Positions 15,315 to 42,324 of a DNA stretch of 64,000 bases are shown here, one piece after another (position 1 is the first letter of the stretch; every line of letters starts with the position of its first letter). This stretch comes from Nitrososphaerota archaeon (GTDB lineage Archaea; Thermoproteota; Nitrososphaeria; Nitrososphaerales; Gagatemarchaeaceae), in contig DAHWNW010000002.1 in NCBI GenBank assembly GCA_027339745.1, positions 55,725-119,724 on the forward strand. The letters run 5' to 3'. The position numbers were made by a program, and so were the translations under genes. A model generated the notes under the pieces. It was not told the DNA's origin and ran no database searches. It saw nothing but the letters and a program-made list of their open reading frames with translations.

Positions 15315-17288
15315 ATGCGCGAGGGAAGGCTGCTCTGGGAACCCGACCCGGGCCTCGTCAGGCGGACGGCCATGTCGGCGTACATGAAATGGCTGGAAAA
15401 GAGGGGGTCCAGCTTCGAAGGGTACGACGAGCTCTGGCGATGGTCCGTGGACGACCTGGAAGGGTTCTGGGGGTCCATCTGGAAGTACTTTGACGTCGCA
15501 GGCGCGGACTATCCGGTGCTCGCAGAGCGCAAGATGCCGGGGGCGAAGTGGTTCGATGGGGCAGAGCTCAACTTCGCAGAGCGAGTGTTCGCGAAGGGGA
15601 GGGATGGGCCGGCGCTCATCTGCAGAGGGGAGAGGGCGCAGGGGAAAGTAGTTGCCTGGCAGGAGCTCGAGCGGAAGACGGCGGCCCTCGCCAGAACCCT
15701 GAGGGATTCAGGTGTGGGGCGAGGAGACAGGGTTGCGGGATACCTTCCGAACGGGCCCGAAGCGATAGTAGGTGTCCTGGCCGCCGCGAGCGTCGGAGCC
15801 ATCTGGTCTGGGAGCCCTCCAGAGTTCGGGACCCAATCAGTTGTAGACAGGTTCGGGCAGATAGGACCTAAGGTTCTGATTGCCACCGACGGCTACAGCT
15901 ACGGCGGGAAGTGGACCGACAGAGCGGACGATGTCTCCTCCATCGTGAAGTCCATCCCAAGCATAAAGAAGGTCATCTCCGTGTCTGGGGGAAGCAAGGG
16001 GAGAGGATTAGCTGGCTCAGATGCTTGGGAGGAGGCGACGGGAGGCAAGGAGAAGCTCGACCACGAGTTCGTCCCCTTCGAGCACCCGCTGTGGATCCTG
16101 TACTCGTCTGGGACCACCGGGCTCCCGAAGCCGATAGTGCACTCGCATGGTGGGATACTAGTCGAGCTCCTGAAGTCCCTCGCCCTGCACAACGACATAA
16201 GGGAGGGGGACCGCTTCTTCTGGTACACCACGACAGGGTGGATGATGTGGAACTACCTCTTGGGGGGGCTCCTGCACGGAGCCACCCTCGTCCTATACAA
16301 CGGCCACCCCGCCTGGCCTCGCCCTGATTCTCTGTGGTCCTTGATGGAAGAGACAGAGACGACGTATATGGGGACAAGCGCGGCCTACATCTCCGCCTGC
16401 ATGAAAGCGCGGGTCGAACCGCGAGGTTCGTTCAGCCTGAGCACTTTGAGGGGGATAGGCTCGACCGGGTCGCCCCTCTCGACTGACGGATTCGAATGGG
16501 TGTACGCGAAGGTCAAGGATGGCGTCTGGCTCGAGTCACTGAGCGGAGGGACAGATGTCTGCACGGCATTCGTCACAGGGTCGCCGACGCTCCCTGTGTA
16601 CTCGGGGGAGCTTCAGTGCAGGGCGCTGGGGGCGAGCGTCCAGGCGTTCGACGAGAACGGCAGCGCAGTCGTCGGCAAGGTCGGAGAGCTGGTCATCACA
16701 GAGCCCATGCCCAGCATGCCCGTGTTCTTCTGGGGGGACGAGGATGGGAGCAGATACAGGGAGAGCTACTTCGACATGTTCCCCGGGGTCTGGAGGCATG
16801 GAGACTGGATAAAAGTGACCAGCAGAGGGACGTGCGTAATCTACGGCCGTTCAGACGCCACGATAAAGAGGCAAGGAGTGAGGATAGGCACGAGTGAAAT
16901 CTACAGGGCAGTCGAGAAGGTCCCCGAAGTCTCCGACTCCATGGCGGTCGACGTGGTTTCGAAGGAAGGGGGCGAGGAGATGGTCCTCTTCGTTTCGCTC
17001 AACGAGGGGGCGTCGCTGGACGAAGAGCTTGCCGCCAAGATCAAGGCCCAAATCAGGGCCGACCTCTCTTCGCGGTACCTCCCAGACAGGCTCGTCGCGG
17101 TCCCAGCCATTCCTCGGACGTTGAACGGGAAGAAGCTCGAAGTGCCGGTGAAGAGGATCCTCGCCGGGGCGGACCCGGAGAAGGTCCTGAATAAGGGATC
17201 CCTGGCAGACCCCGCATCGGTGGAACACTTCGTGAAGATCGCGAAGGGGCTCATCGCCGGCGGCCGGGGGGATTTGGAAGCGAATTAA
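15315..17288 (+). CDS. Acetoacetyl-CoA synthetase (acetoacetate-CoA ligase)
   Basis: N-terminus 'LLWEPDPGLVRRTAMSAYMKWLEKRG...YDELWRWSVDDLEGFW' and AMP-binding motif 'ILYSSGTTGLPKPIVH'. ATG at 15315; the track ORF starts at 15207 inside the preceding gene. Confidence 0.85.
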   Translation: MREGRLLWEPDPGLVRRTAMSAYMKWLEKRGSSFEGYDELWRWSVDDLEGFWGSIWKYFDVAGADYPVLAERKMPGAKWFDGAELNFAERVFAKGRDGPALICRGERAQGKVVAWQELERKTAALARTLRDSGVGRGDRVAGYLPNGPEAIVGVLAAASVGAIWSGSPPEFGTQSVVDRFGQIGPKVLIATDGYSYGGKWTDRADDVSSIVKSIPSIKKVISVSGGSKGRGLAGSDAWEEATGGKEKLDHEFVPFEHPLWILYSSGTTGLPKPIVHSHGGILVELLKSLALHNDIREGDRFFWYTTTGWMMWNYLLGGLLHGATLVLYNGHPAWPRPDSLWSLMEETETTYMGTSAAYISACMKARVEPRGSFSLSTLRGIGSTGSPLSTDGFEWVYAKVKDGVWLESLSGGTDVCTAFVTGSPTLPVYSGELQCRALGASVQAFDENGSAVVGKVGELVITEPMPSMPVFFWGDEDGSRYRESYFDMFPGVWRHGDWIKVTSRGTCVIYGRSDATIKRQGVRIGTSEIYRAVEKVPEVSDSMAVDVVSKEGGEEMVLFVSLNEGASLDEELAAKIKAQIRADLSSRYLPDRLVAVPAIPRTLNGKKLEVPVKRILAGADPEKVLNKGSLADPASVEHFVKIAKGLIAGGRGDLEAN

Positions 17289-37058: not shown

Positions 37059-38147
37059 CTATCTGGTGGTCTCCCCAGACCTGACCGACTCGTAGAGCCT
37101 CCGGGCGGCAGGGTCCTTCTCGAAGTGGACCCTGATGGGCGCGATGATCGCGTCGAGGGCCTCGGCGACGCCCTTCTTGAGGTCAGCCGGGTGCAGCAGG
37201 CCGCCGATGTAGGCGTCCTCCAGCTCCTTGTAGGACGCGAATTCTACCGCCCCGCCGTACTTCTCGGGCCTCTCGACCCTGAAGGTCTTCCTCTTCCGGA
37301 AGATTATGTACTTGGAGTAGTCCATCAGGGCGTTCCCGGCCACCACCTTGGGGGGACAGTAGGCCGAGTTCACCTTGCTGCGTATCAACTCTGGCCCGTC
37401 GTGGACGAAGATCGAACTCTCTGGCTTGCTCTTGCTCATCTTGCTGGCTATCTCGGAGTCCAGGGCCCCGTTTTCGTCGAACCCTTCGGGTTCCTTCTTC
37501 CCCTGGAGCCCTATGAGCATGTGATGGTGGACCGCGACAGGCTTCTTCCATTTCAGCTTCACCGCTATCTCCCTGGCCAGTATGTTGGCGCGCCGCTGGT
37601 CGAGGCCCAGCTGGCAGATGTCCACGTCGAGCCAGAAGATGTCGGCTACCTGCATCATAGGGTAGAGGAGCTGAGCTGCCTGCACTGCTTCCTTGGACGT
37701 CCTCCCTGCGATGGTGAGGGCCCTCTGAGCCCGGGCCAGGGTGAAGTTCTGGGCGACGGCGACCACCTTCTTCCAATACTCCTCGTTCCTGGCCGCGTCG
37801 CTGGTCCAGAGGATTTCGACCTTGTCCATGTCGACCCCCGCAGCCTTCCAGACCTCGACGAAATACCGGCCGACATCCTGGATGCGCCCCAAGTCACCCC
37901 CCATCTTGTTGTTGACCCAGGCGAACCAGTCCGCGATCCAGAGCTTCATCCGGACCCCTGCCCTCAACATGTCTTCGACGAGTATCGGCCGGAGGACGCC
38001 GAAGGGGAGGTGGGCGAGCCCGCTCGGCTCGAAACCGTCGTATGCAGTCGGATGCTCCTTTGCCTGGAGGAGAGCCATCAGCTCTTCCCCGGTGATTATC
38101 TCCTCTCCGACCCCCTTGATCAGGGCGTACCTCTCTTCCAGGTCCAT
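37059..38147 (-). CDS. tyrS: Tyrosyl-tRNA synthetase (archaeal type)
   Basis: 'AYDGFEPSGLAHL' (HIGH-region equivalent) and 'KMSKSKPES'. ATG at 38145-38147. Confidence 0.85.
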   Translation of the reverse strand: MDLEERYALIKGVGEEIITGEELMALLQAKEHPTAYDGFEPSGLAHLPFGVLRPILVEDMLRAGVRMKLWIADWFAWVNNKMGGDLGRIQDVGRYFVEVWKAAGVDMDKVEILWTSDAARNEEYWKKVVAVAQNFTLARAQRALTIAGRTSKEAVQAAQLLYPMMQVADIFWLDVDICQLGLDQRRANILAREIAVKLKWKKPVAVHHHMLIGLQGKKEPEGFDENGALDSEIASKMSKSKPESSIFVHDGPELIRSKVNSAYCPPKVVAGNALMDYSKYIIFRKRKTFRVERPEKYGGAVEFASYKELEDAYIGGLLHPADLKKGVAEALDAIIAPIRVHFEKDPAARRLYESVRSGETTR

Positions 38148-40477: not shown

Positions 40478-41344
40478 TCAACGCAGGACGGCGGCAACCA
40501 TCGCGACCAGGAATATGATCGCAAGATAGGGGCTTGAGAATTTGAAGGCCAGCCATGCGTTGTCCTTGGTGGGGGCCCTGAATAGCTTGATGTTGGTCGC
40601 GAGCAGGAGGAAGTCGAAAACGAGCGAAACCCCCAGGTAAACATAGAAGCCGGGTCCGAGGAAGTAGGATACGTACGTCAGGCTCACCGGGATGAGGAGT
40701 AGTGTGTTGAAGACGATGTACCTTGAGGCGGCAGCAGGCCCCACCACCGATGGGAGCATCGGGACGTTGACTGCCGTGTAGTCCTCCTCTGTGATGACCG
40801 CGAGGGACCAGAAGTGGCTCGGCGTCCATACAAAAACAAGCGCGCCGAGGAGCCATCCCACGGCGGCGTCGCTGTAAGTGACGGCGTACCAGCCGGCCAG
40901 AGCGGCGCAGCTCCCGGCGAACCCCCCGAGGACTATGTTCCAGCTGGTACGAGGCTTCAGGAAGAGCGTGTAAACAGGGACGTAGACGAAGGCGCCCAGG
41001 GCGATGAAGAAGGTTGCAAGTATGTCCAGTGTGAAGGCAGCCACGACCACACCGGCGGCGAGGAGACCGAGACCCATGATCAGGGCGTGCGAGGGCCGCA
41101 CTATCCTACCGGCCGGGAGGGGCCTCCCCATGGTCCGCTTCATCTTCGCGTCCATCCCCATCTCCAGGTAGCTGTTCAGCGCAAGGGCGCCGCTGGAGGC
41201 CAACGCTCCCCCCACCAACACCCCGGCCAAGGTTACGAGTGGCGGCAACCCCCTCTCGGCCACGACGGCCGAGCCCAGCGCGGCCATGAGAAGAAGCGGG
41301 GTGATCTTAGGCTTCGTTAGCGCGAGATAGTCTGAGAGGCTCAA
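40478..41344 (-). CDS. ctaB: Protoheme IX farnesyltransferase (heme O synthase)
   Basis: UbiA-fold membrane protein beginning 'YLALTKPKITPLLL' with 'LNSYLEMGMDAKMKRT' and 'WTPSHFW'. Confidence 0.85.
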   Translation of the reverse strand: MSLSDYLALTKPKITPLLLMAALGSAVVAERGLPPLVTLAGVLVGGALASSGALALNSYLEMGMDAKMKRTMGRPLPAGRIVRPSHALIMGLGLLAAGVVVAAFTLDILATFFIALGAFVYVPVYTLFLKPRTSWNIVLGGFAGSCAALAGWYAVTYSDAAVGWLLGALVFVWTPSHFWSLAVITEEDYTAVNVPMLPSVVGPAAASRYIVFNTLLLIPVSLTYVSYFLGPGFYVYLGVSLVFDFLLLATNIKLFRAPTKDNAWLAFKFSSPYLAIIFLVAMVAAVLR

Positions 41345-41437
41345 ATCGGGGGTTCCATCTGTGGCTGGGCCTCCGCGCTGCGTATTTTGGTCTTGCTCAG
41401 GGGATTCAGGAGGGCCCTGCGGTGAGCTTCGTTGAAA

Positions 41438-41450
41438 CCCTTAAGAAATC
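41438..41450 (+). promoter_or_regulatory. TATA-like box (CCCTTAAGAAATC) upstream of tRNA-Tyr
   Basis: About 25 nt upstream of tRNA position 1. Confidence 0.4.
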
Positions 41451-41470
41451 TCTGAGTTCCGGGCGCCCGT

Positions 41471-41627
41471 CCCGCGGTAGCTCAGCCTGGTAGTCCCGGA
41501 AGGGGCCAACAGCTTCCGGCTGTAGAGGTCGGCCATCGGCTGACCCGTCCAGCCTACTCAGGCCACAGTGACCGGAGTGTCGCAGGCTCAAAAGGTGCCT
41601 AGGCACCTGACAATCCTGCCCGCGGGA
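41471..41627 (+). tRNA. tRNA-Tyr (anticodon GUA) interrupted by three introns (positions 22/23, 37/38, 59/60)
   Basis: Exons are 41471-41493, 41511-41525, 41571-41592 and 41614-41627. They splice to CCCGCGGUAGCUCAGCCUGGUAGAGCUUCCGGCUGUAGACCGGAGUGUCGCAGGCUCAAAUCCUGCCCGCGGGA. This gives a full cloverleaf with a C1-G72 pair and A73. Each intron has a bulge-helix-bulge motif. No encoded CCA. Confidence 0.85.
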
Positions 41628-41757
41628 CACATTACCGCTAGAACGACCGCTCCGGCGCCCCGGGCGCACCATTCTGTACAAGCGTCTTCCTCGAAGGGGG
41701 CTCGGCAGGCGACTCGAGGAACCGTTTTATCCCCCACCAGAACGGGTTGAAACAGCG

Positions 41758-42324
41758 TTGAGTTCAGCTTCTCCCAAGAGCAGGAAGTCCAAGAAGGAAG
41801 GGGTCAAGGCCGAGGTCGTGGAGGAGGTGGAGAAGGCCGGGAAGGCGGTCAAGAGGGAGGTAAAAAGGGCTGAGAGAATGGGGGCCGAGTCGGCGAGGAG
41901 ACCCAAGGCGAAGCCTCAAGCTAAGGCTCCGGCTGGGAAAGCCCCCGTCCCCTCGGTCTTGTCCAGGCACGGGACCGAGATGATCAAGAGGGAAGGGAAG
42001 GGCTTCTCGGTCGGAGAGCTGTCCAGCGCAGGGCTTGCCCCCGGAGAGGCGGCCCGGTGGGGGGCGAGGGTTGACTACAGAAGAAGGAGCGTTATCGAAT
42101 CGAACGTGAGTGCCCTAAAGGGGTGGGCCGCATCACCTGCCGCGGCTCCTAAATCTGAGGGAGAGCCCGAGAAGGCGGGGCGAGCCCTGGAGAGGGCCGG
42201 AGAGGAAGTAGCCAGAGAAGCTGAAAAGGCCGGGAAGGCGGTGAAGAAGGAAGCCAAGAGGGTCGAGAAGGGGGCCGAGCAGAAGCTCGGGAAGAAGCCC
42301 CGTGCTAAGAAGTCCGAATCGTAG
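41758..42324 (+). CDS. rpl13e: Ribosomal protein L13e-domain protein with Lys/Glu-rich extensions
   Basis: Core 'REGKGFSVGELSSAGLAPGEAARWGARVDYRRRSVIESNVSALKGW' matches the L13e signature (RxGRGFSxxEL...VDxRR...NVxxL). TTG start about 30 nt after 'CCGTTTTATCCC'. Confidence 0.65.
   Translation: MSSASPKSRKSKKEGVKAEVVEEVEKAGKAVKREVKRAERMGAESARRPKAKPQAKAPAGKAPVPSVLSRHGTEMIKREGKGFSVGELSSAGLAPGEAARWGARVDYRRRSVIESNVSALKGWAASPAAAPKSEGEPEKAGRALERAGEEVAREAEKAGKAVKKEAKRVEKGAEQKLGKKPRAKKSES

Follow-up and report, generated by a model that had tools for sequence, protein, structure and literature searches.

Positions 41471-41627 (+) of the 64-kb stretch of DNA analysed here (contig DAHWNW010000002.1, hereafter the window) very probably hold a functional gene for tRNA-Tyr(GUA) in an uncultured Nitrososphaerota archaeon; three bulge-helix-bulge (BHB) introns would be removed from the gene's transcript. 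An earlier reading made without database searches (the sequence-only reading) had proposed this gene, with introns at tRNA positions 22/23, 37/38 and 59/60; the 157-nt sequence and every exon and intron coordinate quoted there were verified. The proposal is borne out by the cloverleaf of the spliced product, the geometry of the BHB motifs, a shuffling control, conservation among relatives, the exact absence of intron 3 from some of these, and covariation. The three-intron gene itself is a correct identification of a kind already published for this archaeal group, and it leaves knowledge of archaeal tRNA splicing unchanged.

The spliced product

Excising the three introns (Table 1) leaves a 74-nt RNA, CCCGCGGTAGCTCAGCCTGGTAGAGCTTCCGGCTGTAGACCGGAGTGTCGCAGGCTCAAATCCTGCCCGCGGGA, which ARAGORN identifies as tRNA-Tyr(gta) with a full cloverleaf. 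The program also reports tRNA-Tyr, with a canonical intron of 45 nt, when intron 2 alone is retained; when intron 1 or intron 3 is retained, it detects no tRNA. Read from the sequence, the spliced RNA belongs to class I, with a 5-nt variable loop, the anticodon GUA, a C1-G72 pair and discriminator A73—the last two as read earlier. Anticodon GUA, C1-G72 and A73 form the identity set in archaeal TyrRS recognition. The nucleotides of the tertiary core (U8, A14, G18, G19, A21, U33, G53, U55, C56, A58 and C61) are all present, and position 54 is C. CCA is not encoded in the gene; exon 4 ends at A73. The four exons are contiguous and collinear on one strand within 157 nt, so neither trans-splicing nor permutation is necessary to assemble the product, and the arrangement is not that of a split or permuted tRNA gene.

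As a test of chance, all BHB-like candidates in the 157 nt were enumerated blind to the earlier coordinates, and their combinations were screened with ARAGORN. Seven full-length products were accepted: four were tRNA-Tyr, comprising the junctions of the sequence-only reading and variants shifted by 1 nt with weaker BHB motifs, and three were tRNA-Leu(tag), which use another internal splice site. The identical procedure, applied to dinucleotide-preserving shuffles, yielded a full-length tRNA in 0/100.

The expectation that default annotation would miss this gene proved true of ARAGORN and Rfam on this window. ARAGORN run on the unspliced 64 kb returned 0 tRNAs, and Rfam gave no tRNA match at the gathering score, at E-values up to 10 around the locus, or at E-values up to 1 across the whole window; both are blind to an essential tRNA-Tyr gene within 64 kb. 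Unless an intron-aware archaeal search is used, the quality scores of metagenome-assembled genomes (MAGs) and the tRNA complements of these Nitrososphaerota lineages are underestimated—tRNAscan-SE 2.0 has a dedicated BHB model trained on Thaumarchaeota (PMC8450103).

Bulge-helix-bulge motifs

Junctions were scored for a 4-bp central helix (H) between two 3-nt bulges, with the cut after the second bulge nucleotide; the outer and inner flanking helices are denoted h and h'. For intron 1, H pairs UGGU (41488-91) with GCCA (41505-08) in 4/4 positions, and h' has 3 bp, CCC/GGG closed by GGAA; this is the pairing drawn in the sequence-only reading, and h' covaries in relatives. For intron 2, H joins C32-U35 (CUGU) to ACAG (41565-68), again with 4/4 pairs, and the anticodon stem serves as h. 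For intron 3, H consists of U55-A, C56-G and A57-U (41588-90 with 41608-10), three of four pairs, set between the 5-bp T stem as h and an h' of 5-6 bp (GGUGC/GCACC) that covaries. The spliced product would be unchanged if intron 3 were moved by 1 or 2 nt; it is the BHB register that picks 59/60. Taken together, the introns show the bulges and H, at least one flanking helix each, a restored cloverleaf, and compensatory upkeep or exact junctions among relatives.

The geometry bears on the order of events. Helix H of intron 1 takes up nucleotides 17a-20 of the D loop, and G22 and A23 fall in the bulges, so the D stem can form only once intron 1 is gone. The three motifs do not overlap, and therefore no fixed order of removal is needed.

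Several observations weigh against a functional gene with three spliced introns. The outer helix of intron 1 is only 1 bp, nearly none; H of intron 3 carries a C54-C41611 mismatch at its outer end, with which the pairing proposed for this intron otherwise stands; the T loop has C54 (window 41587) where U54 is near-universal; and the minimum free energy (MFE) fold of the full pre-tRNA, at -76.8 kcal/mol, differs from the fold with all three BHBs, at -64.1 kcal/mol. The near-absent outer helix of intron 1 and the mismatch in intron 3 mean that both would need a broad-specificity enzyme; the splicing endonuclease EndA of Thaumarchaeota is of the alpha2-beta2 type (PMC4090602, PMC5829648), and the (alpha-beta)2 form of EndA is documented to act on relaxed HBh' motifs (PMC5829648). 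The MFE of the whole pre-tRNA is regarded as uninformative about the BHBs because the energy model penalises bulged motifs, which the protein binds.

Position 54 had been singled out as an oddity of this gene, a view that comparison does not sustain. C54 is found in 66 of the 110 related tRNA-Tyr genes parsed (among the matches listed), uninterrupted T loops included, and the T loop CUCAAAU with C54 is present in all soil Nitrososphaeraceae parsed as well as in the window's clade. Because it is common to so many related genes, and to T loops that no intron interrupts, C54 is, on the comparison of sequences, probably a lineage-wide trait and not a defect of this gene. The substitution may affect the 54-58 reverse-Hoogsteen pair and the position-54 modification.

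Conservation in close and distant relatives

Syntenic loci were collected from NCBI MAGs and from ENA, JGI and Logan assemblies (L001-L012; L numbers denote relative loci). The three-intron gene is present in all of them, in at least 7 independent assemblies from four sources. These close relatives retain all 157 nt and have identical exons, with flanks that are heavily diverged, near saturation. Their changes fall only at free intron sites. In intron 1, the 3' bulge has C, U or A as its second nucleotide and the loop reads GGAA, CCAGA or UAAA; in intron 3, the loop reads CUAG or CUUG. The sequence-only reading had also extended the acceptor helix into leader and trailer; the 2-bp extension (41469-70 with 41627-28) is conserved, and the longer pairing of 41461-67 with 41654-60, present here, is deleted in close relatives.

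A more distant gene, L013, was located via its L13e homologue (50% identity). It carries the first two introns and lacks intron 3, and its T arm, GUCGG-CUCAAAU-CCGAC, has the predicted junction and T loop. The same exact absence at the predicted junction is seen in L017, L052, L109 and L117, which like L013 are left with GGCUCAAAUCC and the T loop CUCAAAU. The exon stems of L013 and the window differ by compensatory changes: the T stem GCAGG/CCUGC becomes GUCGG/CCGAC, and G7-C66 becomes A7-U66.

A scan of genome collections by an exon-1 pattern gave at least 119 loci, of which 110 genes were parsed. Splicing was parsed by dynamic programming against the window's mature sequence, and by BHB enumeration for L014, L033, L046, L106 and L120. 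Among the matches listed, 108 of the 110 parsed genes give 74-nt products that ARAGORN calls tRNA-Tyr(gta), and the canonical intron is present in all. That intron, at 37/38, stands alone in Aigarchaeota/Caldarchaeum, Conexivisphaerales and several Bathyarchaeia. It is joined by one at 58/59 in at least about 50 soil Nitrososphaeraceae and Nitrosocosmicus, by one at 22/23 in Ca. Gagatemarchaeum, Ca. Wolframiiraptor and others, by one at 59/60 in Brockarchaeota, by one at 30/31 at three loci (among the matches listed), and by both 22/23 and 59/60 in the window's clade (12 loci). One orthologous gene provides a clean natural experiment on intron gain and loss, in a series of one intron (Aigarchaeota, Conexivisphaerales), two (soil ammonia oxidisers, Ca. 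Gagatemarchaeum), three (here) and four (some Bathyarchaeia).

The non-canonical introns covary where they recur. In 23 distinct 22/23 introns H is kept, at 4 bp in 22 cases and at 3 bp in L111, and the inner stem varies in sequence and is still paired over 3-9 bp, as CCC/GGG, UCC/GGA, CCUC/GAGG, GCAGC/GCUGC or CUCGCG/CGCGAG. Ten distinct 59/60 introns likewise covary, with h' forms such as GCGCC/GGCGC and GGACC/GGUCC. In L014 a change within exon sequence, A57 to G, is matched on the intron strand by U to C in H of intron 3, turning A57-U into G57-C.

The ammonia oxidisers among the relatives (L015-L131) have their T-loop intron at 58/59, with H GCUC/GAGY and a length of 19-32 nt. This site lies one nucleotide from the 59/60 site used by the window's clade and Brockarchaeota, and the pair of sites suggests either independent insertions or intron sliding. 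In two MAGs, two differing Nitrososphaeraceae-type tRNA-Tyr genes lie on separate contigs (L026 and L128 in GS_EKS_MAG_00091; L059 and L131 in WS9), which points to mixed strains in the bin or a real duplication.

Proposed processing and alternative readings

Transcription would start from a conserved TATA-like element ~26 nt upstream and give a 157-nt pre-tRNA. As judged from its sequence, this RNA could form three BHB folds: a relaxed HBh' motif in the D arm at 22/23, a canonical one in the anticodon arm at 37/38, and an hBHBh' motif on the T stem at 59/60. The archaeal splicing endonuclease, expected to be of the (alpha-beta)2 type, would cut each 3-nt bulge after its second nucleotide; an RtcB-type ligase would then join the four exons, and CCA would be added, in line with established archaeal tRNA biology. 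The predicted product is a 74-nt class I tRNA with C1-G72, A73 and anticodon GUA.

It is quite improbable that the locus is instead a decaying tRNA-Tyr pseudogene in which only the canonical intron is real and the 17- and 21-nt inserts are inactivating, with a working tRNA-Tyr elsewhere. Such decay would fit a locus that ARAGORN and Rfam fail to recognise; however, the 157 nt hardly vary between species with near-saturated flanks, the promoter block is conserved, and the BHB stems of both inserts covary, at 22/23 in 23 distinct relatives and at 59/60 in 10. For the nearest relative (L095), the species-representative genome also speaks against a second copy, with one exon-1-pattern match among the matches listed—a pattern that fits an uninterrupted copy as well.

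We likewise give very little credence to a real gene whose D-arm and T-loop inserts escape EndA, whether they stay in place as expansions or are excised in some other way. The relaxed motif of intron 1, with its outer helix of 1 bp, and the mismatch in the central helix of intron 3 lend this reading what support it has. Retention is hard to reconcile with known tRNA architecture: a retained intron 1 would split the D stem at G22/A23, and a retained intron 3 would widen the 7-nt T loop to 28 nt, both incompatible with it. Relatives without intron 3 show exactly the predicted T loop, and relaxed HBh' motifs are documented for (alpha-beta)2 EndA (PMC5829648). Removal of all three introns by EndA is the reading that we prefer. 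A chance cloverleaf in GC-rich, self-complementary intergenic sequence—the locus region has 66% G+C, the window about 62%, and weak BHB-like candidates are many (41 in the real sequence, about 37 in the shuffles)—is already refuted by the failure of every shuffle to yield a full-length tRNA and by the same exons occurring with different introns in more than 100 genomes.

Comparison with known systems

In Crenarchaeota and Thaumarchaeota, tRNA genes with several introns were reportedly described by Sugahara et al. in 2007/2008 and by Marck and Grosjean in 2003. Multiple non-canonical introns in Thaumarchaeota are published (PMC4090602, PMC5829648, PMC8450103), and 22/23 and 59/60 are among the known intron positions (PMC4090602). 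The window gene resembles these genes, which have up to three BHB introns, one at 37/38 plus non-canonical ones (PMC4090602, PMC8450103), and which also show relaxed HBh' motifs in hosts with (alpha-beta)2 EndA. It differs from them in its host, an uncultured Nitrososphaerota archaeon of ~62% G+C and not a member of Thermoproteales, and its canonical intron is far more conserved in sequence than tRNA introns usually are. The sequence-only reading had linked multiple non-canonical introns to Thermoproteales/TACK lineages; the identity of neighbouring proteins places the window in a Nitrososphaerota (Thaumarchaeota) MAG. For this particular gene or clade, no published description was found.

A like layout, with BHB-type introns in the D arm, at 37/38 and in the T loop, is known from tRNA-Ile of the red alga C. 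merolae (PMC3728597). There, as reverse-transcription PCR showed, loss of the D-arm and T-loop introns precedes that of the canonical intron (PMC3728597). That gene, unlike the window's, is eukaryotic and nuclear, of another isotype and served by another endonuclease, and its order of removal is an analogy only. Closer at hand are the two-intron tRNA-Tyr genes of soil Nitrososphaeraceae (L015-L131), which share with the window the exons including C54, hairpin 1 and the CAGCCUAYYRGGC motif of intron 2 (see below), and the presence of a T-loop intron; they differ in placing that intron at 58/59, with H GCUC/GAGY, and in lacking the 22/23 intron. The split and permuted tRNA genes of Nanoarchaeum, Caldivirga and Thermofilum (PMC3218864) resemble the window gene in BHB-dependent processing by the same endonuclease, as predicted for the latter; in contrast, the window's four exons are contiguous and collinear on one strand.

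Fold and conservation of the canonical intron

Intron 2 is modelled with two local hairpins and a BHB core. Hairpin 1 is GGUCGGCC, loop AUC, GGCUGACC, and hairpin 2 (GCCU/AGGC) lies within the conserved motif CAGCCUACUCAGGC; the two hairpins with the BHB core form the unconstrained MFE structure of the anticodon arm plus intron 2. Of the hBHBh' motif in the sequence-only reading, the CUGU/ACAG central helix stands: it has 4/4 pairs, and RNAalifold on 35 related anticodon arms with their introns returns exactly h (the anticodon stem), the 4-bp H and a 3-nt bulge. The inner helix proposed there (4 bp, 41527-30 with 41561-64) is possible but 13.7 kcal/mol worse in the full pre-tRNA than the conserved two-hairpin fold. 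Most likely, then, the intron folds as the two hairpins and BHB core predicted by modelling, and not by way of that inner helix.

Conservation extends well beyond the window's clade. Among the matches listed, 70 of 89 distinct introns from relatives have an equivalent of hairpin 1, with differing stem sequences, and 85 of 90 have the motif CAGCCUAYYRGGC or a close variant. This motif occurs once in the window, and the introns that bear it come from MAGs labelled Nitrososphaeria, Aigarchaeota, Conexivisphaerales, Bathyarchaeia and Brockarchaeota. Mean pairwise identity within the window's clade is 95% for exons, 83% for intron 2, 55% for intron 1 and 52% for intron 3. The strong conservation of the canonical intron hints at a testable intron function. 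It is a tentative idea, one that we doubt more than we believe, that this tRNA-Tyr intron is no mere spacer but an ancient structured RNA under sequence constraint; if so, it may dock a modification of the anticodon loop that depends on the intron, such as pseudouridine 35, or persist as a stable excised RNA.

Other accounts of the motif were tried and set aside. Over 9 nt, its 3' part, CUAYCRGGC, is complementary to G15-G22 of the D loop (GCCUGGUAG), and its Y/R variants would keep G-U pairs; pairing between the two is unsupported. The D loop is identical in every gene of the first scan, and D-loop variants were sought in a metagenome scan; three intron-bearing variants (L231, L143 and L237) show no matching intron change. 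The internal GCCU/AGGC hairpin accounts for the motif more simply. A C/D-box guide in intron 2 was rejected, with no C box (RUGAUGA) found and no Rfam match, as was an H/ACA guide, for which the intron is too short and which also lacks an Rfam match. An ACA does lie 3 nt from the end of intron 2, because pairing with CUGU of the anticodon loop forces it.

Two further canonical introns are unusual at their 3' ends. In L074 (Ca. Nitrosocaldus schleperae) and L121 (archaeon HR04) there are two possible tandem 3' splice motifs, ACAG-AA and, 14-18 nt later, GCAG-AG or CCAG-AG. Either a single long intron or two introns in succession at 37/38 would fit this arrangement.

Relatives with further introns

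More introns than in the window gene are found in two Bathyarchaeia MAGs. Their tRNA-Tyr genes, L033 (CAZHKA010000069.1) and L106 (CAZYOZ010000007.1), are 198 and 209 nt long and have four BHB introns, at 30/31, 37/38, 53/54 and 59/60; H is 4 bp in each, and the spliced product is a 74-nt tRNA-Tyr(gta). A text search of the literature gave no report of four-intron tRNAs, and the highest published archaeal number found was three.

Position 44/45 is a further site of interruption. In L120 (CAZVYD010000006.1, Bathyarchaeia) a third intron lies there, with H of 4 bp and an inner helix of 6 bp, besides those at 22/23 and 37/38. In L046 (JACPTA010000227.1, a groundwater Thaumarchaeota MAG) there is a 21-nt insert at 44/45 whose motif is weaker (3 bp and 4 bp); counted with the gene's introns at 22/23, 37/38 and in the T loop, this may make four introns.

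Genomic context

The coordinates of the gene, its parts and its neighbours are collected in Table 1. A divergent heme O synthase gene and a co-directional gene for ribosomal protein L13e flank the tRNA gene; genes for ThiI and tyrosyl-tRNA synthetase are found upstream, the latter 3.3 kb away, as the sequence-only reading had placed it. Neighbouring proteins are residue-for-residue equal to proteins of MAGs named Nitrososphaerota archaeon, one of the contigs being JAFMAJ010000001.1 of GCA_029785075.1.

Table 1. Parts of the tRNA-Tyr gene and neighbouring features in the window
Feature	Coordinates	Strand	Description
Exon 1	41471-41493	+	tRNA positions 1-22: acceptor 5' strand, D-stem 5' strand, D loop, G22
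Intron 1	41494-41510	+	17 nt, position 22/23, relaxed HBh' motif
Exon 2	41511-41525	+	Positions 23-37: D-stem 3' strand, anticodon-stem 5' strand, C32 U33 G34 U35 A36 G37
Intron 2	41526-41570	+	45 nt, canonical position 37/38; recognised as canonical by ARAGORN
Hairpin 1 of intron 2	41527-41545	+	GGUCGGCC, loop AUC, GGCUGACC; 41527-34 with 41538-45
Conserved motif/hairpin 2 of intron 2	41550-41563	+	CAGCCUACUCAGGC; GCCU/AGGC, 41552-55 with 41560-63
Exon 3	41571-41592	+	Positions 38-59: anticodon-stem 3' strand, variable loop GUGUC, T-stem 5' strand, C54 U55 C56 A57 A58 A59
Intron 3	41593-41613	+	21 nt, position 59/60, hBHBh' motif on the T stem
Exon 4	41614-41627	+	Positions 60-73: U60, T-stem 3' strand, acceptor 3' strand, discriminator A73
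Promoter-like block TTGAAACCCTTAAGAAATCT	41432-41451	+	Kept in relatives L005-L013, surrounding spacer diverged
Tyrosyl-tRNA synthetase gene	37059-38147	-	362 amino acids, cognate enzyme; exact match to NCBI-named tyrosine--tRNA ligase proteins
Heme O synthase gene	40478-41344	-	Divergent neighbour, adjoins the tRNA gene upstream
Ribosomal protein L13e gene	41758-42324	+	Co-directional neighbour, adjoins the tRNA gene downstream

Upstream of the tRNA gene, the TATA-like sequence TTAAGAAAT is centred about 26 nt before tRNA position 1. We infer that the conserved TTGAAACCCTTAAGAAATCT block is the archaeal promoter of the tRNA gene. A minus-strand open reading frame (ORF) that covers the locus (41406-41681, 91 amino acids) was rejected as a gene; none is called there in public records, and it is not conserved as coding sequence.

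Elsewhere in the window, the sole Rfam match at E-values up to 1 is a weak one to the C/D-box sRNA sR53, at 15671-15733 (+), with 23.1 bits (gathering score 49) and an E-value of 0.45. A second promoter-like block, CCGTTTTATCCCCC (window 41720-41735), lies upstream of the L13e gene and is kept in relatives in which the spacer has diverged; in L013, a second GCTTAAGAAA box precedes a small ORF.

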